A DNA stretch of 60,984 nucleotides from Patescibacteria group bacterium (GCA_036381415.1 DASVCV010000005.1:1-60984), one strand, 5' to 3'; numbered from the stretch's first letter, positions 1 through 59,547 are shown. Notes: generated from the sequence alone by a model not told the origin. Numbers and translations are program-made.

Positions 1-2681
1 TTGGAGTTTTATTGCTTTTAGCACAAATTCTCTTCCCTCGAGGCCCCAGAGTGGCAAACGATTTTCCTCTTATCTCAAGTCAAGTTTTAAAAAGTAATTT
101 TTCTTTACCCTACATTTGGAGTGACAAAACTGCAGAGGGAATGGGGGAGTATGCTGGAGCTACACTTTGGTCATGGCCACTTAATTTTGTGTCTGGGATT
201 TTTGGAATTCTTAACTTTGGTTTTCCGACTATAGAACTTATATTTTTGATGGTTCCTTCCTTTGTAATCGCGGTTATTTCTGTGAGAAGGGTGTTGGATA
301 AATTTAAAATTGAAGAACCAGGCAAATCTATAGGGACCTTACTATATGTTACAACCACATATTTTTTGCTTTTAATTGATGGGGGGCAACTTTCTATTGC
401 TTTAACATATGCCTTTTTCCCCCTGGTATTTTTACTTTTTGTCAATTCTATTCATAGTTCTTTTAAGAAGAGAATAATTGCTGCTTTAGCAGTATCTGCA
501 CTTGGATTTTTAGATCTTAGGTTTGTATATCTGTTGGGAATTCTTATTTTTGTCCACTTTTTATACAACTTATTTTTAAGTGAAGATAGGAAAAAATTGT
601 TTTTTGGATACCTGTTTTCAGGATTCATAAGTGGAATAGTATTTGTATTACTCCATTTATATTGGATTTTACCTTTAGTATTTGTTAGGGATAACTTGCT
701 CCCTCCTTCATATGATGCTGGTATAAAAAGCTTTACTACTCTTTATCACTCTTTGGCACTTTTACAGCCGAATTGGTATGTAAATGTTTTTGGTAAAATT
801 TCTCCTTTGAGATTTGATTTTGTTTTAATTCCCATTTTAGTTTTTCTAGCGCCAATTTTGAAAAAGAAAGATAAAACGGTTGGATTTTGGCTTTTAGTTT
901 CGTTGATATCAATATTTTTAGCAAAAGGAACGGCACCGCCTTTTGGAGAAGTTTATGCGCTTATATATGCTAAAGTACCTGGTTTTAACTTGTTTAGAGA
1001 TTCAACCAAATTTTTCTTTTTGGTTGCACTTTCTTACTGTGTGCTATTGGCAATTGTAGTTAATCAGATATCAAAGAAAGTAAAAACAGCTCCTTTGTTT
1101 TTAATTTTCTACCTATTATTGTTGGTTTCTCCGGTTTACTTGGGTAAAATGACAGGAGTTTTTTCAAAGCCTGCATATCAAAGCGGTTACGAGAGTTTGA
1201 ACAGAGAATTGGAAAATGATTCACAGTTTGGTAGAGTTTTATGGATTCCTAGCAGGCCACCTTTAGGATATTCTGATCTAAATCATCCTTATGTGGAAGC
1301 ACTGAGAATGGTTATTGCAAGACCTTTTGCTATTGGAAGAGTGGGAGATTATGAATTATTTAATTTTTTAAGAGAGTCGCCATTTGTTGGACAAATCCTT
1401 AAAGTATCCTCTATTAGATATTTGGTTTATCCATACCCAGACACAAGAAGGGAAGATTTGAAGAAGGACAACATTGATTATTATCACTCATTTTTATCTC
1501 AGATATCAAAATTGCCGTGGGTAGAGGAGCTTCATAACTATGGAAGTGATTCTTTTCCCATTCCCCTATTAAAAGTTAAAGATAGCCAGGATCATTTATA
1601 TATATCTTCTAACTTGTTTGGAATTTTAGGGTCAGATGAAATTTATGAGAATTTGATGAAAGTTAAAGATTTTGATTTGTCTCGTAATGCATTAGTTTTC
1701 TTGGAGGAAAAGACGAATGCTAGCAAAAAATTTGCAGAGACTTTCGGAAGGATAGTTTTATATAACAAATCAGAGATAGATTTAAAGGGAAGTTTAGTAG
1801 ATTCTTCTTTATTACTTTTTCCTTCAAAAATATTAAATCTTGATCCGGACAGCTCTGGCTGGTGGAAAAGGGATGGACGGGATGTGTCAGCTTGGAGAAA
1901 CTTTATGCAGGATAAATATCAAATTGATAATTTGGATTTTGATTATGGTGGTGGTTGGGCGATAGCAGAAGGAAAGTTAAAGTTGAAATTAGACAAACTT
2001 AATATACAAAAGGGAGATATACTTCTTGCTCGTGTAATGAAGAGCAGCCGTGGAGGTAAGATAAATTTTATTGAGGGAGGTAAAAGTGTTGGAGTTTTAA
2101 GTACAAAAACTGATGGTACGCAAAAAATTAATATTAAACTATCTGGCTCTGTGGTACCCAAGTTTTTTACTTTTAATAGAGCCAGCTTTGATTGGGTTGA
2201 GGTTGGAAATTTAGATGAGGGTAAAGAAATTATTTTGGAGACTGAAGGGGATATTAATGTAGTTAATGCATTAGCAGTGATTCCAGCAAGTAAATGGAGT
2301 GAAATTGAAACTGAAGTTAAAAATTTAAGGAAAGAAGGGAAAATTTTAGAGTGGGATAAGATAAATAGCGGTAATTTAAGAGTTTTTGAAACTCCAAACA
2401 CAGTTAATCTTTCATACAAGGAAATAAATCCTACTCTCTATAAGATAAGTGTAAAGGGGATTACTAAGCCTGTTGTTATTGCTTTTTCTGAAACCTATGA
2501 TAATAATTGGCACCTTAATAATAGTGAAGGGTTATCACTTTATAGCCTTATAAACGGTTTTGAGGTAGAAAAAGATGGAGATTATATTTTGGAGTTTGCT
2601 CCTCAGAAGTATGTTGATGTTGGGCTAATTGGAACTTTGATGGGAATTTTGCTTGTAATATTGATATTGATTTTGTGTTGA
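1..2681 (+). CDS. Large polytopic membrane protein, AftD/YfhO-like GT-C glycosyltransferase candidate (5' end probably outside window)
   Basis: ORF track 12..2681 starts at a TTG and the frame stays open back to nt 3. Many hydrophobic helices in the N-terminal ~400 aa, then a large soluble domain and one C-terminal TM (LIGTLMGILLVILILILC). Architecture and the N-terminal W..G.G..P pattern resemble DUF3367/AftD- or YfhO-type GT-C enzymes; function is by resemblance only. Confidence 0.5.
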   Translation, partial: GVLLLLAQILFPRGPRVANDFPLISSQVLKSNFSLPYIWSDKTAEGMGEYAGATLWSWPLNFVSGIFGILNFGFPTIELIFLMVPSFVIAVISVRRVLDKFKIEEPGKSIGTLLYVTTTYFLLLIDGGQLSIALTYAFFPLVFLLFVNSIHSSFKKRIIAALAVSALGFLDLRFVYLLGILIFVHFLYNLFLSEDRKKLFFGYLFSGFISGIVFVLLHLYWILPLVFVRDNLLPPSYDAGIKSFTTLYHSLALLQPNWYVNVFGKISPLRFDFVLIPILVFLAPILKKKDKTVGFWLLVSLISIFLAKGTAPPFGEVYALIYAKVPGFNLFRDSTKFFFLVALSYCVLLAIVVNQISKKVKTAPLFLIFYLLLLVSPVYLGKMTGVFSKPAYQSGYESLNRELENDSQFGRVLWIPSRPPLGYSDLNHPYVEALRMVIARPFAIGRVGDYELFNFLRESPFVGQILKVSSIRYLVYPYPDTRREDLKKDNIDYYHSFLSQISKLPWVEELHNYGSDSFPIPLLKVKDSQDHLYISSNLFGILGSDEIYENLMKVKDFDLSRNALVFLEEKTNASKKFAETFGRIVLYNKSEIDLKGSLVDSSLLLFPSKILNLDPDSSGWWKRDGRDVSAWRNFMQDKYQIDNLDFDYGGGWAIAEGKLKLKLDKLNIQKGDILLARVMKSSRGGKINFIEGGKSVGVLSTKTDGTQKINIKLSGSVVPKFFTFNRASFDWVEVGNLDEGKEIILETEGDINVVNALAVIPASKWSEIETEVKNLRKEGKILEWDKINSGNLRVFETPNTVNLSYKEINPTLYKISVKGITKPVVIAFSETYDNNWHLNNSEGLSLYSLINGFEVEKDGDYILEFAPQKYVDVGLIGTLMGILLVILILILC

Positions 2682-3503: not shown

Positions 3504-4778
3504 ATGAGCAGATTAAAAAATATTTTTGGGACTGCTACTTTTAGACAATCTAGCTTAGTTTCTTCAGCAACGATTATAAATGGTATTTTAGGACTTGCCT
3601 TTTATATAACAACTGCAAGATTTTTAGGTCCATCCTTGTTTGGAGTTTTAGGTCTTGGTATTGCAATAGCAACAGCAGTATCTGATATTTCTGATTTTGG
3701 AATAAATGCTGGAATAGTTAGATTTGTTGGAAAGTATTCAAATAAACCATTAGTTGCGAATAAGTATTTAAAAATTTCATTGAAGATAAAAGGCGTTGTT
3801 GCGTTTAGTGTCTTGATTTTGGGATTTATAATAGCTCCCTTTTTGGCAACAAATATTTTTGGAAAGCCTGAATTATTATTACCAATTGAAATTGCCTTTG
3901 TTGGAGTTGGATTTACTCTTTTATATGGGTTTACAACTTCTGCACTTCAAGCCTTACAAAAATTTAAGGAGTGGAGTGTAATTCAAATAGGAACTAATTT
4001 ATTAAGATTGGTTCTAATTTTTCTTCTTTTTTCAGCAGGTGCACTGGGCCTAGTGAATTCAATGTTAATTTATATTTTAATGCCTTTGGCGGGTTTTGTA
4101 TTCGGACTTTTGCTTTTAAGAGAAAGGTTTTGGGAAGCAAAGGGAGAAAAGGGAAAACTAAAAGAACTTATTCATTTTAACAAGTGGGTGGCTGCTTTTA
4201 TTTTTGTATCTGCAATTTCTTCTAGGCTTGACACTTTTATATCAGCAAGATTACTTACTTCTGATGGTTTAGGAATTTATTCTGCTGCAACCCAGCTTAC
4301 TCAGATTGTTCCTCAAATTGCAGGAGCTTTGGGTACTGTAATTGCTCCTAAGATGGCTAGTATGACAGATATAAATAAACTGGCTAAATATTATAAAAAA
4401 GTTCAGGTAATGGTAGTTGGAATTGCTGGACTTGGGCTAATTGGAATCCCAATTGCTAGTTTTGTTATTCCCTATTTGTATGGAAACAAATATGAGGGAG
4501 CAATTCTAATTTTTGTCCTTCTATTTATTGCTAGTTTGATATTTTTGATTTCAATACCAATTCATAACGCAATAATTTACTATTTTTCATATCCTAAGCT
4601 TTTCTTGTGGTTATCAATTGGACACTTTTTAATAATATTTTTTGTTGGGTGGAATCTAATATCAACTTATGGGGCAATAGGGGCTGCCTTTTCTGTACTT
4701 ATTGGATCGTTGTTCAATTTTGTTGTTCCACTGGGGTGGCTAGTAAATAAAATTTACCGTAATGAAGAAAAAAAATAA
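3504..4778 (+). CDS. Wzx-type oligo/polysaccharide flippase (MOP superfamily)
   Basis: 424 aa and hydrophobic throughout, with roughly 12-14 helices. Length and N-terminal pattern are typical of polysaccharide flippases, and it lies in a glycosyltransferase cluster. Confidence 0.65.
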   Translation: MSRLKNIFGTATFRQSSLVSSATIINGILGLAFYITTARFLGPSLFGVLGLGIAIATAVSDISDFGINAGIVRFVGKYSNKPLVANKYLKISLKIKGVVAFSVLILGFIIAPFLATNIFGKPELLLPIEIAFVGVGFTLLYGFTTSALQALQKFKEWSVIQIGTNLLRLVLIFLLFSAGALGLVNSMLIYILMPLAGFVFGLLLLRERFWEAKGEKGKLKELIHFNKWVAAFIFVSAISSRLDTFISARLLTSDGLGIYSAATQLTQIVPQIAGALGTVIAPKMASMTDINKLAKYYKKVQVMVVGIAGLGLIGIPIASFVIPYLYGNKYEGAILIFVLLFIASLIFLISIPIHNAIIYYFSYPKLFLWLSIGHFLIIFFVGWNLISTYGAIGAAFSVLIGSLFNFVVPLGWLVNKIYRNEEKK

Positions 4779-19498: not shown

Positions 19499-20695
19499 AT
19501 GAAAATATTAATGTTAGTTCCATTTCTACCTAATACCTACACTTCTGGTGGCCAGACAAGATGGTATAACCTTATTAAATACTTATCTGAAAGGCATGAA
19601 ATTACACTCTACTCTCTTTTAAAGGATGAATCTGAGAGAAGATTTGTTCCTGAGCTTGAAAAATACTGTAAAAAAGTAAAGGTGTTCTCAAGACCAGAGT
19701 CACCTTGGACATTTAGAAACTTATTTTTGACTGCATTTTCTTTCTATCCTCTTCTTGTTATTCGTAACTGGTCTTTTAAAGAAAGAAAAGAGATCAAAGA
19801 AGAACTAGAAAAGGAGAAATATGATCTAATTCATGCTGAGGCATTTTATGTTATGCCCCATTTGCCAGCAACTCATATTCCAAACATTCTTGTTGAGCAG
19901 ACGATTGAGTATCAGGTTTATAAACACCATGTTGATACTCAAGTTCCCTGGATCTTAAAGCCTATTTATATGATTGATATTATTAAGCTTAGATATTGGG
20001 AAAGGTATTTTTGGAAGAAAACTACGAGGCTTATTGCAGTAAGTGAAGATGACAAAAAGGTAATGCAGGAGGAGATCCCGGGAATTAAGGTTGAAGTAAT
20101 ACCAAATGGAGTGGATGCTGACTATTTTGCTAAAAAGAAGGTAGAAAGGAAGACTCCTCCACGTATTTTATATCTAGGAAACTTTAAGTGGATTCAAAAT
20201 TCTGAAGCGTTAGGGCTACTTGTAAGTGAGGTTTGGCCAAGGGTAAAGAGTGCTTTCCCAAAATCCTTATTATGGGTAGTAGGAAGAGATATTCCCAAAG
20301 AAATTACAAATATGGCTAAAGATCCTGAGAATAAGATTGAGGTTACCGAGGCTATTGAGGATCCAAGAGATGCCTACCAGGGGTCATCTGTCATGGTACT
20401 TCCTATTAAAGGTTCAGGGGGTACAAGATTAAAGGTAATTGAAGCTATGGCTTCAGCACTACCTATTGTTTCTACTCAGAATGGAGTAGGTGGATTAGGC
20501 CTCATACCAGGAAAACATGCACTTGTTTCTGATTCAATTGAAAAAATAGCAACTGACACAGTTCTTCTTTTAACGGACAGAAAAAAGGCAGAAAAGATAG
20601 GCAAGGCAGGTCAAGAATTTGTTAGAAAAGTTTATGACTGGAAGATAATAGTAAAACTACACGATGCAATATATAAGGAGGTAATTAATGAGTAA
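19499..20695 (+). CDS. GT4 glycosyltransferase
   Basis: GGTRLKVIEAMASALPIVST signature and a GT-B length. Confidence 0.75.
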   Translation: MKILMLVPFLPNTYTSGGQTRWYNLIKYLSERHEITLYSLLKDESERRFVPELEKYCKKVKVFSRPESPWTFRNLFLTAFSFYPLLVIRNWSFKERKEIKEELEKEKYDLIHAEAFYVMPHLPATHIPNILVEQTIEYQVYKHHVDTQVPWILKPIYMIDIIKLRYWERYFWKKTTRLIAVSEDDKKVMQEEIPGIKVEVIPNGVDADYFAKKKVERKTPPRILYLGNFKWIQNSEALGLLVSEVWPRVKSAFPKSLLWVVGRDIPKEITNMAKDPENKIEVTEAIEDPRDAYQGSSVMVLPIKGSGGTRLKVIEAMASALPIVSTQNGVGGLGLIPGKHALVSDSIEKIATDTVLLLTDRKKAEKIGKAGQEFVRKVYDWKIIVKLHDAIYKEVINE

Positions 20696-51718: not shown

Positions 51719-52420
51719 ATGAGTAATGTGTTTTTTGAATCTTTAAGCACAAAAATCATTAATGAAGATTTTTTAAAGACAGACTTAATAGGAAAAGAAA
51801 GTGTAGATTTAGTTGTTACTTCACCTCCATACAACGTAGACATTAAGTATAATTCTCACAAAGATAATTTATCCTACAAAGAATATATAGAGTTTAGTAG
51901 AAAGTGGCTTAATAAGGCATTTAGTCTAATGAAGTCAGGTGGAAGGCTGTGTTTAAATGTTCCTCTTGATACAGATAAAGATGGGAAAAGAAGCATATAT
52001 GCAGATTTGACAGTTATTGCTAAAAAAGTTGGATTTAAATACAAAGGGACAATTATCTGGAATAAACAGAATGTAAAGAATAAATATGCAATGGTTTTTT
52101 CAAAAAATATAGAAGTAATAATTATTTTCTATAAAGATGAGTGGAAACCAGTGAAGAAGGAATATATGGAGTGGGTAAATGAGACTTGGAAGTTTTCAGG
52201 AGAAAATGCAACAAGAATGGGACATCCGGCTGCCTTTCCAATAGAACTTCCAACAAGATTAATAAAAATGTTTAGTGAAAAGGAAGATGTAGTTTTAGAT
52301 CCTTTCATGGGAAGTGGAACAACATTGGTTGCTGCAAAGAAAAATGAAAGAAAAGGGATTGGAGTGGAGATAGATGAAAAATATTGTGAGTTAGCAAGAA
52401 CAAGAAGTGTTTCTATATAA
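51719..52420 (+). CDS. Beta-class amino DNA methyltransferase (N4-C or N6-A), orphan
   Basis: Motif IV VVTSPPYN near the N-terminus and motif I LDPFMGSGTT near the C-terminus (beta permutation). HPAAFPIELP. Only 233 aa. No nuclease gene adjacent. Confidence 0.75.
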   Translation: MSNVFFESLSTKIINEDFLKTDLIGKESVDLVVTSPPYNVDIKYNSHKDNLSYKEYIEFSRKWLNKAFSLMKSGGRLCLNVPLDTDKDGKRSIYADLTVIAKKVGFKYKGTIIWNKQNVKNKYAMVFSKNIEVIIIFYKDEWKPVKKEYMEWVNETWKFSGENATRMGHPAAFPIELPTRLIKMFSEKEDVVLDPFMGSGTTLVAAKKNERKGIGVEIDEKYCELARTRSVSI

Positions 52421-52427
52421 AATTTTG

Positions 52428-52436
52428 TGTTATAAT
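52428..52436 (+). promoter_or_regulatory. Extended -10 TGtTATAAT, promoter of the ileS leader
   Basis: tgttataat at 52428-52436, inside the 201-nt gap before ileS. Confidence 0.5.
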
Positions 52437-52443
52437 TTCTTAA

Positions 52444-52620
52444 AGCGGAGAGGAAGTAATCACTTCCAAGCTAAAGGAAGAAATCTTAATTGAAAGTAGA
52501 ACCTTTCGGGTAAGCCCGTTACAGCAGTCAATAAGAAGCAAATAAGCAAAGCTTGTTTCCTTGAAATAAGGTGGTACCACGGTATAGCCGTCCTTAGTAT
52601 AATAGAGAGGACGGTTTTTT
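52444..52620 (+). promoter_or_regulatory. T-box riboswitch leader (Ile specifier candidate AUC)
   Basis: T-box/antiterminator: AAGG (52568-71), UGGUACC bulge (52572-78), ACGG (52579-82), UAUAG loop, CCGU (52588-91), CCUU (52592-95). F-box CCGUUA 52516-21. AGUA/GAA S-turn elements 52495-98 and 52480-82. K-turn-like base AGC-GGAGA.../...AA-GCU 52444-72. Sits upstream of an aminoacyl-tRNA synthetase gene. Confidence 0.75.
52588..52620 (+). terminator. Intrinsic terminator of the T-box leader, 3' arm contains the ileS SD
   Basis: CCGTCCT (52588-94) pairs with AGGACGG (52608-14), followed by T6 (52615-20). GAGAGGA 52605-11 is the only SD-like element before ATG 52622. Confidence 0.7.
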
Positions 52621-52621
52621 A

Positions 52622-55450
52622 ATGGCAAATAAATATTTCGAATCAGTTGATCCAAAAGTTAATTTTCCAGAGCTTGAAAATAAAATTATTAAGTTTTGGA
52701 AGGGTAATGATGTTTTTAAGGAGTCTGTTGAATCCCGGCCTGTTTCTAAAAAATGGAATTTTCTTGATGGTCCTCCTTTTATAACTGGCCTTCCCCATTA
52801 TGGAAGTCTTCTTTCTAGTATTCCAAAGGATTTATTCCCAAGATTCTGGACAATGAAAGGCTACAGAGTCCGTCGTGTTTGGGGTTGGGATTGTCATGGA
52901 TTGCCTGCTGAAAACAAAGTTGAGACTAAATTAGGACTTAAAAGTAAACGCGATATTGAAGAAAAGATTGGTGTAAAGAAATTTATAGATGAATGTAAGT
53001 CATACGTTTCTGAAGTATCTAATGAGTGGGAGTGGTATGTAGATCATGTAGGAAGGTGGGTTGATTTTAAGAATGCATACAAAACAATGGATTTATCTTA
53101 TATGGAATCTGTTATGTGGGTATTTAAGAATATGTATGATAAAGGACATATTTATAAAGGGCTTAGGGTATCTTTGTATTGTCCTCATGATTCAACTCCA
53201 ATTTCTAATTTTGAAGTGGCAATGGATCCTGAAGAAAACTATAAAGATGTTACAGAACCAGCAGATACTTATAAATATAAAGTAAAAGGAGAAGAAGATA
53301 CTTATCTACTTGCCTGGTCAACTACTCCTTGGAATAAACTTGCAACTCCAGCATTGGCAGTCAATCCCAAACTTACCTATGTAAAAGTAAAACAGGGAGG
53401 TAAGTATTATATTTTAGCTAAAACTACTTTAAAAATACTTAACCAGGATGATCCTTACAAAATAATTGAAACATATAAAGGATCAGATCTGGTAGGACTT
53501 GCCTTTGAACCTCATTATGATTTTTATAAAGTAGAACCTGGGAAAAAAGCTTTTGTTGTAGTTGGTGGGGATTTTGTTACAGCAGATGAAGGAACTGGAA
53601 TTGTAACAATTGCTGCATATGGAGAGGAAGATTTGACTCTAATGCAGAAAGAAAATATACAAATAGTTCTTCATGTTGATGATACTGGAATAATTACAAA
53701 AGATTCTCCAGTTGCAGGTGGAATGTATTACTTAGATGCAAATGAAAAGATAAATGAAGATTTAAGAAAAAGAGGATTAATTTATAGAGAAGATAAACTA
53801 ACTCACTCTGTTGCACATTGCTGGAGGTGTCATACCAGGCTTTATTATGCTCCTCAAAATGCCTGGTTTGTAAATGTGCAGGACTTAAAAGCGCGTCTTA
53901 AGAAAAATAATGAAGTTGTAAATTGGTTTCCAAAACATTTTAAATATGGACGCTTTCTTAAGAGCATGGAGGCAGCTCCTGATTGGTGCATATCAAGAAG
54001 CAGGTATTGGGGATCTCCAGTTCCTGTTTGGGAGTGTGAGTGTGGAGAAATGTATGTTCCAGGATCTATTAAGGAATTAGAAGAATTATCAGGAACAAAA
54101 ATAAAAGACTTACATAAACCTGAGATTGATGAAGTAACTATTAAGTGTAAGAAATGCGGCAAAGATGCAAAGCGAGTTCCTGAAGTACTTGATAGCTGGA
54201 TTGAAGCTGGGTCTGCTTCTTTTGCAGAAAGACATTTTCCTTTTGAAAAAGGACTAGATTTAAAGGACTTTTTTCCACCTGATTTTATAGTTGAATATAC
54301 AGGACAGATTAGAGCTTGGTTTTATGTTCTTCATGTAATTGGGACTGCCTTATATGACAGTAATGCCTTTAAAAATGTGGTGGTAACAGGAGTAATTTTG
54401 GGTACTGATGGGAGAAAGATGAGCAAAAACTATGGAAACTATCCAGATCCAAAACAGATGCTTGAGAAGTATGGAGGGGATGCCTTAAGGCTTTATTTAA
54501 TGGGTTCTCCTGTGATGCATGGAGAGGATATCTTAATTTCAGAAGAACAATATAGAAACCAAGTTAGGGGCACACTTTTAATTTTGTGGAATATTTATAA
54601 CTTTTTTGTAACTTATGCAAATATTGATGGATGGAGTCCAAATGCAAAGACAACTAAATCTTTACATGTTTTAGATAAATGGATACTATCACTACTAAAT
54701 AAACTTGTAGAAGAAGTGACTGCGAGTCTTGAAAGCTATGACACAGTAGGTGCGATTGCATCTGTACAGGACTTCATAGGAAATTTATCTAACTGGTACA
54801 TAAGAAGATCAAGAAATAGAGTTGGACCAGGCGCAACAGATGAGGCAGATAAATCTGCTTTTTATGAAACCACACAGAAAGTTTTAACTACCTTAACTGC
54901 AGTTTGTGCACCAATTATTCCTTTTACTGTTGAGGAGATTTATAAAAATCTAACAAAAGAAAAATCTGTCCATCTTAGTAACTGGCCAAAAGCAGATGGT
55001 GAGACTAATGAAAAACTTATAGATCAAATGAAACTAGTAAGAGAAGTTGTAGAAAAAGCACATGCTGTTAGAAAAGAAGAAAAAATACCAGTAAGGAAGC
55101 CGTTATCTGTTTTGAAAGTAAAAAGTCCAAAGGAGAAAGTGGATTCTTCTTTAGTTGACCTTATAAAGGATGAAGTAAATGTTAAAGAAGTAAAGTGGGT
55201 AAAGGGAGAGAGTTTGGAGGTTACCCTTGATACAAAAATAACACCAGAACTTGAGGAGGAGGCAAAGGCTAGAGAATTGGTAAGAAAGATTCAGGGAGAA
55301 AGAAGAAAACTTGGAATGGATCTTACTCAAATGGTAGATGTCACTACAGATTGGATGCCAAAAGACAAGAAGCTAGTTAATTATGTGACTTCCAAAACTC
55401 TAATAAATAATATTTCAGAAGGTGCGTTTAAAGTAGTACCATCTAAATAA
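52622..55450 (+). CDS. ileS: Isoleucine--tRNA ligase
   Basis: PPFITGLPHYGS (HIGH region), GWDCHGLP, editing-domain TTPWT-like TTPWN, KMSKN (KMSKS). Confidence 0.95.
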   Translation: MANKYFESVDPKVNFPELENKIIKFWKGNDVFKESVESRPVSKKWNFLDGPPFITGLPHYGSLLSSIPKDLFPRFWTMKGYRVRRVWGWDCHGLPAENKVETKLGLKSKRDIEEKIGVKKFIDECKSYVSEVSNEWEWYVDHVGRWVDFKNAYKTMDLSYMESVMWVFKNMYDKGHIYKGLRVSLYCPHDSTPISNFEVAMDPEENYKDVTEPADTYKYKVKGEEDTYLLAWSTTPWNKLATPALAVNPKLTYVKVKQGGKYYILAKTTLKILNQDDPYKIIETYKGSDLVGLAFEPHYDFYKVEPGKKAFVVVGGDFVTADEGTGIVTIAAYGEEDLTLMQKENIQIVLHVDDTGIITKDSPVAGGMYYLDANEKINEDLRKRGLIYREDKLTHSVAHCWRCHTRLYYAPQNAWFVNVQDLKARLKKNNEVVNWFPKHFKYGRFLKSMEAAPDWCISRSRYWGSPVPVWECECGEMYVPGSIKELEELSGTKIKDLHKPEIDEVTIKCKKCGKDAKRVPEVLDSWIEAGSASFAERHFPFEKGLDLKDFFPPDFIVEYTGQIRAWFYVLHVIGTALYDSNAFKNVVVTGVILGTDGRKMSKNYGNYPDPKQMLEKYGGDALRLYLMGSPVMHGEDILISEEQYRNQVRGTLLILWNIYNFFVTYANIDGWSPNAKTTKSLHVLDKWILSLLNKLVEEVTASLESYDTVGAIASVQDFIGNLSNWYIRRSRNRVGPGATDEADKSAFYETTQKVLTTLTAVCAPIIPFTVEEIYKNLTKEKSVHLSNWPKADGETNEKLIDQMKLVREVVEKAHAVRKEEKIPVRKPLSVLKVKSPKEKVDSSLVDLIKDEVNVKEVKWVKGESLEVTLDTKITPELEEEAKARELVRKIQGERRKLGMDLTQMVDVTTDWMPKDKKLVNYVTSKTLINNISEGAFKVVPSK

Positions 55451-56487
55451 TGAAGGTTGCCCAGGGAGTATTCAAAAAAGACACAGGACTTGTAATTGGA
55501 GTAATAATTCTAATAGCAATCAGCTTAATAATACTTAGATCTATTGCTCCTTTTGTGTTTCCTCTTTACTTTGTTTATTTAATTGTTGCCATAGCTTTAT
55601 TTATTTTTTTCTCTCAAATTGATTTTGACTCAATTTCTCTTTTTTACGTCTATTTTTACATTGGAAGCATATTTCTACTTATTGCACCATTAGTTATTGG
55701 GCAAGTTACCCGCGGAACTGTCAGGTGGATTCCTTTAGGACCAATTGCCATTCAGCCTGCTGAAATTGTAAGGCCATTTTTATTAGTTTTCTTTGCCAAG
55801 TTTTATACGCTTCGGGAAGTGTCTGTTAAAAGATTTTTGGTTTCAAACTTTTTGTTTTTAGTTCCTTTTTTTCTAATTTTAGTTCAACCTTCCTTGGGGG
55901 TAGCTATTATGACTGCTGTTGGTTATTTAGGAATTGTAATAGCATCTACTTTTAAGAAGAAATATTTGGTTGGATTTGCAGTAATATGTGCAGTGCTGGC
56001 CCCGCTTTTGTGGCAATTCCTTGCACCGTACCAAAAGGGACGCATATTGAGCTTTATATCTGGAACTGATAGCAGCTACAACAGCATTCAATCTATGATT
56101 GCAGTTGGTTCTGGTAGATTTTTAGGAATGGGACTAGGTAAGGGAGTTGAGACTCAATTAGCTTTTTTACCTGAAAAACATACTGACTTTGTGTTTGCTG
56201 CAATTTCAGAAGAATTAGGGTTTGTTGGAGCAGCACTTACAGTTTGTGTTATCTTTTTTGTTCTTTACAGAATTATTAAGATTTTGGAAGTCTCACAGGG
56301 AGTAGGAGCTAGGATATTTATATCTGGTATGTTTCTAACCCTTTTTGTTCAGGTAGTAGTACACATTGGAATGAATATGGGACTTTTTCCTATTACTGGA
56401 CTTCCACTTCCTTTGGTTTCAGCTGGAGGATCTTCACTTGTAGCTACAATGATTGCATTGGGAATGGTGATAGGGGCTAAAAAGTAA
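55450..56487 (+). CDS. rodA: SEDS family protein RodA-like
   Basis: QPAEIVRP, VQPSLG, PEKHTDFVFAAISEELGF.G, PLPLVSAGGSS. TAATG overlap with the ileS stop. Confidence 0.8.
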   Translation: MKVAQGVFKKDTGLVIGVIILIAISLIILRSIAPFVFPLYFVYLIVAIALFIFFSQIDFDSISLFYVYFYIGSIFLLIAPLVIGQVTRGTVRWIPLGPIAIQPAEIVRPFLLVFFAKFYTLREVSVKRFLVSNFLFLVPFFLILVQPSLGVAIMTAVGYLGIVIASTFKKKYLVGFAVICAVLAPLLWQFLAPYQKGRILSFISGTDSSYNSIQSMIAVGSGRFLGMGLGKGVETQLAFLPEKHTDFVFAAISEELGFVGAALTVCVIFFVLYRIIKILEVSQGVGARIFISGMFLTLFVQVVVHIGMNMGLFPITGLPLPLVSAGGSSLVATMIALGMVIGAKK

Positions 56488-59074: not shown

Positions 59075-59148
59075 GGTCGTGTAGCTCAGTTGGTTAGAGC
59101 GCTTGATTCACATTCATGAGGTCGCAGGTTCGACTCCTGCCACGACCA
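59075..59148 (+). tRNA. tRNA-Val (anticodon CAC)
   Basis: Manual cloverleaf. Acceptor GGTCGTG/CACGACC, D arm GCTC-AGTTGGTTA-GAGC, anticodon arm CTTGA-TTCACAT-TCATG (one U-U mismatch at 28:42). Variable loop AGGTC, T arm GCAGG-TTCGACT-CCTGC, discriminator A. CCA is not encoded. Confidence 0.85.
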
Positions 59149-59547
59149 CTACTTACAAATATATGATTTTACAGAATCTTTTTGTGAAGAGTTAAGAGAG
59201 TCAAAATCTTCTTTTACTGTGCGGTCATCTACTTTTTGAGTCTCAGTTCCCAAGACATTATTTACCAAACCAGATGAGACTAGTACCTTTTTAATTGGAT
59301 CTGGAGTGCTCTCTGATGTAGCAATTGATCTTAAAAAACCTCCACCTTTAAGAATTATTACTCCTCCAATTGCAGCAGTTAAAAGTATACCCACCATTAA
59401 TCCCATGCCGGCTCCTGAGAAGTTCCATTCAAAAAACATTCTGCTCCATTTTGCCATTAATAGAAGTACTACAAAGCCTACTGCACCAATAATAATAAAT
59501 ATTAATGTGGATTGTGGTATTGATATATCTGGCAGGTTAATACTCAC
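59149..59547 (-). CDS. Hypothetical membrane protein
   Basis: GTG start, two or three TM helices, charged C-terminus. The stop codon abuts the tRNA 3' end. TATACT (59559-59554, minus strand) lies 6 nt upstream of the GTG. Confidence 0.4.
   Translation of the reverse strand: MSINLPDISIPQSTLIFIIIGAVGFVVLLLMAKWSRMFFEWNFSGAGMGLMVGILLTAAIGGVIILKGGGFLRSIATSESTPDPIKKVLVSSGLVNNVLGTETQKVDDRTVKEDFDSLNSSQKDSVKSYICK

Follow-up and report, generated by a model that had tools for sequence, protein, structure and literature searches.

The leader of about 180 bases before ileS in a 60,984-nucleotide (nt) DNA stretch from an uncultivated Patescibacteria group bacterium (GCA_036381415.1, DASVCV010000005.1:1-60984; the whole stretch is called the window hereafter) is, with near certainty, a genuine T-box. 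Taken as a whole, the element is likely to be a tRNA-Ile-responsive class III T-box that controls ileS, and probably also the adjoining ftsW, mainly through transcription attenuation. T-boxes are divided into four classes. In class III, exemplified by Nocardia farcinica ileS, Stem I is short and bears no elbow-binding platform, the specifier occupies an apical loop of five or six nucleotides, and tRNA binding depends on Stem II (PMC10482949). The decoding module of the window leader is very probably of this type, as a short Stem I without a platform, a hexaloop specifier and an adjacent Stem II with an S-turn were all found. The usual translational platform of class III was not found; a hairpin and a U-run stand in place of a Shine-Dalgarno (SD) sequestrator. 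The long, platform-bearing Stem I of classes I and II is likewise lacking, while the terminator and U-run are present. The features of the locus are listed below, with positions counted from the first letter of the window.

52428-52436, plus strand: candidate extended -10 promoter element TGTTATAAT, read from the sequence
52444-52472, plus strand: ultrashort Stem I of 29 nt, with AGC/GCU, internal loop GGAGA/AA, helix GGAAG/CUUCC and hexaloop UAAUCA; identified from the Rfam deletion and covariation
52459-52462, plus strand: specifier AUC (Ile; 52459-61) and its 3' purine A52462, invariant in the alignments and fitting the IleRS gene
52473-52506, plus strand: miniature Stem II, with AAAGG/CCUUU (52473-77 with 52502-06), S-turn, 2-base-pair cap UC/GA and loop UUAAUU
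52478-52483 and 52494-52501, plus strand: S-turn strands AAGAAA and AAGUAGAA, conserved in sequence
52507-52521, plus strand: Stem IIA hairpin CGGG-UAAG-CCCG (52507-18) overlapping the F-box CCGUUA (52516-21), aligned to the Rfam consensus with high posterior
52530-52538, plus strand: purine-rich linker AAUAAGAAG, AAU(G/A)AGAAG in most relatives
52540-52558, plus strand: A/U-rich Stem III of 8 base pairs, AAAUAAGC-AAA-GCUUGUUU (52540-47 with 52551-58), present in the minimum-free-energy and centroid folds
52568-52595, plus strand: antiterminator, with helix A1 (AAGG 52568-71/CCUU 52592-95), helix A2 (ACGG 52579-82/CCGU 52588-91) and loop UAUAG
52572-52578, plus strand: T-box bulge UGGUACC of 7 nt, aligned by Rfam with a posterior near 1
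52588-52620, plus strand: predicted intrinsic terminator, CCGUCCU(U) (52588-94) with (G)AGGACGG (52608-14), a loop of 11-13 nt and U6 (52615-20)
52622-55450, plus strand: ileS (IleRS, 942 amino acids), with Pfam tRNA-synt_1, Anticodon_1 and DUF5915; its AUG lies 1 nt past the U-run
55450-56487, plus strand: ftsW-like open reading frame (ORF), with Pfam FTSW_RODA_SPOVE; it overlaps the ileS stop by 1 base

Identification of the leader

The Rfam T-box model RF00230 matched positions 52439-52598 with 57.3 bits and an E-value of 5.4e-12 when 52300-52750 was scanned in E-value mode. The alignment ran from end to end of the model, with 74 Stem I consensus positions replaced by 4 nt, and it was because of this replacement that the score stayed under the 93-bit gathering threshold of RF00230. 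At gathering thresholds, the scan of the whole window left the T-box unreported and returned only a tRNA-Val at 59075. The sequence-only reading, which had proposed a complete T-box ahead of ileS, would have been given up without a significant cmsearch hit; the hit was significant by E-value and fell short of the curated threshold. None of the 12 relatives described below reached that threshold, so that 0 of 13 leaders were recovered with the window included. As the curated threshold misses all 13, T-box regulation is probably under-annotated in Patescibacteria.

A covariance model built from ten ultrashort-type leaders, termed R1, scored the window leader at 128.6 bits, and a scripted read-out found a standard pair at every helix position that had been proposed. 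The RF00230 match and the Pfam-identified IleRS downstream upheld the proposal of a complete T-box. An examination of orthologous ileS leaders, suggested as a further check, showed that the UGGUACC bulge and its flanking helices are kept and that the Stem I and Stem II helices covary.

Related leaders and their distribution

Five ileS loci retrieved by IleRS homology alone bear the same architecture, namely L004 (Gottesmanbacteria; 136.6 bits with R1), L006 (119.7 bits), L204 (128.7 bits), L209 (95.4 bits) and L206 (81.2 bits). The loci L004, L006 and L204 are from Microgenomates, and L206 and L209 from Parcubacteria; the latter two came from a sample of four Parcubacterial ileS loci chosen solely by protein homology. 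The IleRS of L204 is 73% identical to that of the window, and its leader has the same miniature Stem II. In the other 78 genome loci, whose median spacer upstream of ileS is 71 nt, R1 found nothing convincing. A metagenome scan for the antiterminator sequence returned 119 leaders, most of them ordinary T-boxes with a long Stem I and at least ten of them with the design seen in the window. An ultrashort Stem I was found before ileS-like genes in L180, L198, L152, L128, L181, L171, L160 and L091, and an intermediate Stem I in L145; the IleRS relatives of L198 are named Nomurabacteria, Paceibacterota and Parcubacteria.

Covariation was evaluated on 13 leaders. Pairing was observed in 97.2% of the cells compared with 84.2% in shuffles, 12 of the 24 pairs change on both sides, and none of 500 shuffles attained the observed values. 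When partners were slid by one column, pairing was 53-56%.

The nearest relative, L201 (GCA_040960095.1, IleRS 86% identical), is without a T-box according to R1, and so is L203 (72% identical). Since most close relatives manage without one, the window leader could be regarded as a decaying or non-functional T-box, a view that is very improbable. It would account for the absence from 77 of the 80 closest genome loci, from L203 and from L201 with its 56-nt spacer, and for the degenerate K-turn and truncated Stem II of the window; it does not account for an intact specifier with its purine, S-turn, UGGUACC bulge, A1/A2 helices, terminator and U-run, or for cores that are invariant at IleRS identities of 67-73% while the helices show compensatory changes (GGAAG/CUUCC versus GAAAG/CUUUC). 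Conserved synteny indicates that the leader is an old resident that was lost repeatedly, exchange by recombination being less likely. In L201 (8541-10001), a methyltransferase gene, an HNH endonuclease gene, the 56-nt spacer and ileS follow one another, and TAAAAT lies 5 nt ahead of the AUG; in the window, the methyltransferase gene and the T-box are present and the HNH gene is missing, so that the presence of the leader is patchy between near neighbours.

Several candidates were rejected. Matches to the TGGNACC pattern in L044, L010 and others were attributed to chance, and neither L010 (1-500) nor a weak model match in L076 is a T-box by Rfam. Metagenome matches of high G+C content and 115-130 nt proved to be the 3' parts of canonical long-Stem-I leaders rather than short T-boxes. 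A MAFFT alignment (A4) of L145 and six ultrashort-type leaders misaligned Stem II and was dropped.

Other observations were made on these loci. In L085 (968-1186, minus strand), an ultrashort Stem I with the loop CUAGUCA, which contains GUC (Val), and a terminator precede a gene resembling those of class I synthetases, whose product is only 26% identical to IleRS, and short Stem I hairpins with other candidate codons occur in L197 (4541-4675), L107 (774-888) and L126 (916-1030, minus strand). Judged from these sequences, the combination of an ultrashort Stem I and a putative terminator is not limited to ileS. The Parcubacterial IleRS proteins (L198:5264-8812, L206:1501-5061, L207, L208 and L209) have about 1150-1200 amino acids and contain a PF00300 His_Phos_1 histidine-phosphatase domain inserted between the two halves of the catalytic domain. 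The contig of the ultrashort AUC T-box L152 also carries a tmRNA gene (2064-2454, minus strand; 113.8 bits), and the ORF after this T-box (MTDFTIISRF...) is not IleRS.

Stem I, specifier and predicted transcript start

Stem I follows a common plan of three base pairs (AGC/GCU), an asymmetric internal loop, a helix of 4-5 base pairs (bp) and an apical loop. The commonest apical loop is the hexaloop NNAUCA, some relatives having loops of 7-9 nt, and AUC followed by a purine is conserved. Both Stem I helices covary in the 13 leaders. In the upper helix, GGAAG-UAAUCA-CUUCC of the window corresponds to GAAAG-UUAUCA-CUUUC of L204, which is a compensatory change, and the tops of Stem I in the metagenome read GGGG-AAAUCA-CCCC in L180 and GGAG-CUAUCA-CUCC in L181. 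The sequence-only reading had placed Stem I with a K-turn-like loop at 52444-72, and this placement stood. Its loop of AAUC on a 6-bp helix was revised, because the sixth pair that closes it, U52457-A52462, is possible only in the window; homology gives the preferred hexaloop UAAUCA on 5 bp. The specifier was correctly taken to be the apical AUC followed by A, which is conserved in every orthologue. With A52444 counted as 1, these residues become A16-U17-C18-A19, and A39 falls in the S-turn.

An extra hairpin of about 15-30 nt was observed in Stem I of L181 (9283-9453, minus strand), L198 (5050-5211), L152 (6169-6410) and L209 (1249-1452). Inserted after the 3' strand of the upper helix and ahead of the 3' strand of the K-turn, it makes Stem I a three-way junction.

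Only 23 nt, containing the extended -10, separate the methyltransferase stop from Stem I. From its sequence, the transcript is predicted to start at about 52442-44, at the base of Stem I, and TGnTATAAT likewise lies 7-8 nt ahead of Stem I in L204 and L006. A generic promoter scan did not list the extended -10 at 52428-36 because its -35 element is weak.

A misreading of the region was also considered, in which it would hold a canonical long Stem I, a specifier at a second AUC or a 71-amino-acid antisense ORF (52440-52655, minus strand); this was refuted and retains hardly any probability. With the upstream gene reaching to 52420 and the candidate promoter at 52428-36, there is no space for a canonical long Stem I, and a hidden one was excluded; together with the Rfam deletion, this bears out the proposal that Stem I is truly ultrashort. 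A second AUC does exist at 52483-85 and had been put forward as an alternative specifier, but it sits in distal Stem II and is replaced by AGC in L004 and CGC in L006, and the proposal was withdrawn. The antisense frame is free of stops for 71-72 codons in the window; it is broken in the relatives, where the longest stop-free stretch is 47 codons in L004 and 54 codons in L006, and the ORF was rejected.

Antiterminator, terminator and the output of the switch

The antiterminator and the competing terminator with U6 were confirmed at the coordinates listed above, in agreement with the sequence-only reading, and a hairpin with a U-run was found in all relatives examined. No change in the antiterminator was seen among four orthologues retrieved solely through IleRS homology. 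As the 5' arm of the terminator is the 3' half of the antiterminator, the two hairpins are mutually exclusive. Their predicted free energies are -11.9 kcal/mol for the terminator hairpin and -6.5 kcal/mol for the antiterminator; a difference of this kind is, by the folding model, the usual default-off arrangement.

A purpose-written scan for terminators (perfect stem of at least 7 bp, 4 or more of them G-C, a loop of at most 15 nt, then T6) found a perfect stem followed by T6 at the leader site only, on both strands of the 61-kb window (122 kb), where shuffles gave 0.01. A generic terminator scan, which allows loops of at most 8 nt, missed the leader site for that reason, and over 20 kb it showed no enrichment of terminator-like sites. 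In the leader set, the competing hairpin is present in 13 of 13; 11 of them pass an explicit rule (a hairpin with at least 5 U in the next 8 nt), with free energies of -11.6 to -30.1 kcal/mol, and in L145 and L091 the hairpin plus U6 was seen by eye. The loci found by protein homology also have the equivalent hairpin followed by a U-run (L204, L206 and L209), the run being U5-U8 across the family. The terminator stems of Parcubacteria are 17-20 bp long, with -23 to -30 kcal/mol.

The position of the start codon relative to the U-run varies. The AUG lies 0-1 nt past the U-run in the window, L204, L004, L006 and L181, and 9-39 nt past it in L128, L160, L198, L171, L180, L206 and L209, and the U-run adjoins the hairpin also in leaders of 52-58% G+C (L180, L152 and L091). 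As the U-run tracks the hairpin rather than the start codon, even at such G+C contents, the structure is better explained as a terminator than as a mask of the ribosome site. A purely translational switch as in Actinobacteria, with the hairpin as a sequestrator only and the U-run as an A/U-rich ribosome landing site or a product of chance, is accordingly improbable. The 35% G+C of the genome and the contact between U-run and AUG in the window's clade would suit such a switch. It is contradicted by the U-run directly following the hairpin, both in leaders of 52-58% G+C and in leaders with the AUG 15-39 nt further on, by the 17-20 bp stems with U5-U7 of relatives, which are textbook intrinsic terminators, and by the lack of a comparable stem plus T6 anywhere else in the 122 kb. 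The main output is likely to be transcription attenuation.

Shine-Dalgarno-like motif and possible translational control

The sequence-only reading had also suggested that the terminator hides the SD sequence. It was right that GAGAGGA (52605-11) sits in the 3' arm of the terminator, where AGGA lies 10-11 nt before the AUG; that this motif functions as an SD is doubtful. The AGGA is the obligatory complement of the T-box UCCU and is thus not independent evidence of an SD. Moreover, among 59 crudely called ORFs of the window, SD-like tetramers precede 11 gene starts compared with 8.1 +/- 2.6 at random positions, which is no enrichment, while -10-like hexamers lie 3-18 nt before 16 of the 59 starts against 2.1 +/- 1.4 expected, for example at 3504, 32240, 34216 and 45226. 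These counts suggest that many mRNAs of the genome are leaderless and that SDs are little used.

Dual control, in which the terminator hairpin would also refold on read-through mRNA that has lost its tRNA and mask GAGAGGA and the region 5' of the AUG, is possible, though the less likely arrangement. It draws on the geometry of the window, L204, L004, L006 and L181, where the AUG is 0-1 nt past the U-run and the hairpin ends 7-9 nt before it, on the AGGA 10-11 nt upstream, and on the strong SDs of some window genes, such as AAGGAGG before the ORF at 20688. The forced complementarity of AGGA to the conserved UCCU and the lack of SD enrichment count against it; a spacing of 10-11 nt between AGGA and AUG is also long, and in Parcubacterial members the AUG lies 9-39 nt beyond the U-run and an SD is lacking, which means that sequestration is not family-wide. 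Because the 3' end of the hairpin lies only 7-9 nt before the AUG in the window's clade, a translational effect there is conceivable, alongside attenuation as the main output.

Stem II, Stem IIA and Stem III

Stem II abuts Stem I with no spacer. All 5 pairs of its base helix change on both sides among the leaders (for example, AAAGG/CCUUU, CCGGG/CCCGG and UCGGA/UCCGA), and the S-turn strands AAGAA(A) and (A)GUAGAA, including the GAA and AGUA elements, are conserved. Above the S-turn, only 2 bp are present in the window and L204, and a long distal helix is present in L004 and L006. The Stem IIA/F-box element is conserved in those leaders that have it; IIA/B is wholly missing in several Parcubacterial relatives. 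The leaders L128, L160, L171 and L181 lack it.

The Stem II helix, Stem IIA hairpin, F-box and 8-bp Stem III of the window all lie where the sequence-only reading had put them. Stem III is considered part of the discriminator core; the nearest relatives that have the T-box, L204, L004 and L006, lack it. Leaders without a Stem III, in which AAUGAGAAGUAAnnAAGG leads directly into A1, are L204 (1844-1977), L004 (685-845), L006 (2318-2470), L198 (5050-5211), L128 (1376-1487) and L181 (9283-9453). In L128, the end of the antiterminator is attained in 112 nt.

Host and gene neighbourhood

The window has a G+C content of 35%. In a one-genome-per-species collection, the nearest IleRS genes are those of Microgenomates of the Candidate Phyla Radiation (CPR), namely Levybacteria, Gottesmanbacteria, Woesebacteria and Daviesbacteria, at 61-70% identity; a protein-database search agreed on the Microgenomates affinity, with a top IleRS match of 86% identity, and an exact-protein lookup returned no identical record for the window IleRS. 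On its 5' side, the leader is preceded by ftsA, ftsZ and an N6/N4 DNA methyltransferase gene with its stop at 52420. The gene order ftsA-ftsZ-[leader]-ileS-ftsW-rplU-rpmA is kept among relatives, with rplU and rpmA within about a gene of ftsW. The ileS and ftsW genes are probably co-transcribed, and the T-box may also govern ftsW, a cell-division and cell-wall gene; as ftsW overlaps the ileS stop codon, Ile-tRNA charging may be coupled to it.

A tRNA-Val(CAC) gene at 59075-59149 of the window has the discriminator A, and its CCA end is not genome-encoded (ACTAC continues). The same gene lies 3' of ileS in L201, beyond genes for ParB and a signal peptidase.

Points that weigh against the assignment

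Several points weigh against a tRNA-Ile-responsive class III T-box acting through attenuation. The K-turn, judged by its bases, is degenerate in the window's clade: GGAGA/AA of the window permits G.A plus A.A and not the tandem G.A/A.G, and L004 and L006 are without any GA motif, while Parcubacterial leaders have the canonical UGA...GA. A pseudoknot IIB (GUAA/UUAC) pairs in the window and L180 and not in L004, L006 or L198, and it is not claimed here. The covariation alignment was fitted to the structure of the model. No covariation support comes from the helices A1 and A2, which do not vary and whose sequence was prescribed by the search pattern in the metagenome set. The UGGU bulge predicts an A73 discriminator, which is usual in bacterial tRNA-Ile; a tRNA-Ile gene was found neither in the window nor in any of the more than 200 fetched loci. 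When the window sequence was searched in sequencing runs, no RNA run matched, the only match being a DNA run from a soil metagenome. Finally, transcriptional T-boxes are held to need the platform, because the tRNA has to be bound fast, ahead of the polymerase's arrival at the terminator (PMC7583486, section 6.2), a view that speaks a priori against a co-transcriptional ultrashort Stem I.

Proposed mechanism and significance

In the proposed mechanism, transcription would begin at about 52443 from the extended -10 promoter, and the 29-nt Stem I would display AUC-A in its apical hexaloop. By analogy with the N. farcinica and Mycobacterium tuberculosis structures, the miniature Stem II may dock its S-turn purines on the codon-anticodon duplex, replacing the elbow platform. 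When tRNA-Ile is uncharged, its free NCCA end would pair with UGGU and stabilise the weak antiterminator (-6.5 kcal/mol), allowing read-through into ileS. When the tRNA is charged or absent, CCGUCCU-AGGACGG (-11.9 kcal/mol) would form, and U6 would terminate transcription 1-2 nt before the AUG. We infer both that the leader binds tRNA and that the hairpin and U-run terminate the CPR polymerase.

There is perhaps an even chance that class III T-boxes are true co-transcriptional attenuators and that ileS T-boxes are normally of this form throughout Patescibacteria (both Microgenomates and Parcubacteria). Kinetic, transcription-level sensing of tRNA would then not require the Stem I platform, and the lower size limit of a working T-box would be far smaller than thought, as in L128, with 112 nt to the end of the antiterminator and neither IIA/B nor Stem III. 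Where the AUG adjoins the U-run, as in the window's clade, the hairpin may control translation as well. The family, conserved in another, very large radiation of bacteria, makes the link between Stem I length and regulatory level testable, the candidate explanations being fast class III binding, slow or paused CPR transcription, or another output. At about 110-160 nt up to and including the antiterminator, the leaders are also small natural RNAs on which engineered tRNA-responsive switches could be based.

Comparison with known T-boxes

Full-text literature searches for T-boxes in the Candidate Phyla Radiation or Patescibacteria returned no paper that makes this connection. Structural and single-molecule work relates regulatory level to Stem I length (PMC7583486, section 6.2; PMC10482949): a long, elbow-binding Stem I goes with transcriptional switches, which need quick tRNA capture, and an ultrashort one with the translational switches of Actinobacteria, which act slowly and reversibly. 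TBDB searched for class II (translational) T-boxes in Actinobacteria only, among truncated-Stem-I sequences that its class I model had already detected. Classes III and IV are stated to 'mostly regulate translation initiation' (PMC10482949). The word 'mostly' makes the translational platform a usual trait of class III and not a strict definition, and it suggests that exceptions are already known.

The likeness to actinobacterial ultrashort ileS leaders, which the sequence-only reading had noted, fits class III as defined in PMC10482949. Compared by published descriptions with the class III leaders of N. farcinica (PDB 6UFM), M. tuberculosis (6UFG) and M. smegmatis, the window leader shares ileS and AUC-A, the specifier in an apical hexaloop, a Stem I of about 30 nt without an elbow platform, an immediately following S-turn Stem II, the Stem IIA hairpin with F-box and the canonical UGGN discriminator bulge, and its residue register A16-C18, A19 and A39 coincides with the published numbers. 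It differs in having a G+C-rich hairpin and U6 where class III has an SD-sequestering helix without a U-run, and in its host, which belongs to Patescibacteria (CPR, Microgenomates) rather than being an actinobacterium. Its Stem II consists of the S-turn and 2 bp, whereas a typical Stem II domain (II plus IIA/B) has about 70 nt; its K-turn is degenerate, and its helix A2 is without an insertion.

With class I transcriptional T-boxes (Bacillus subtilis tyrS; RF00230), the window leader shares the alternation of antiterminator and terminator, the U-run, the T-box sequence, Stem II with S-turn, IIA/F-box, Stem III and the logic of read-through on uncharged tRNA. Unlike them, it is without the distal two-thirds of Stem I (AG bulge, distal loop and interdigitated T-loop platform), carries its specifier in a terminal rather than an internal loop, scores 57 against 93 bits and has a U-run that abuts the AUG. 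The class IV 'intermediate Stem I' ileS leader of Actinomyces odontolyticus is similar in lacking an elbow platform, in depending on Stem II and in being ileS-specific, whereas the window leader carries its specifier apically; among the metagenomic relatives, L145 resembles a class IV leader joined to a terminator. Class II glyQS is, like the window leader, a compact transcriptional T-box with a terminator, but it keeps the long Stem I platform and is without Stem II, the reverse of the arrangement in the window. In summary, the window leader joins a predicted terminator to the class III architecture in Patescibacteria and is a variant missed by standard annotation.

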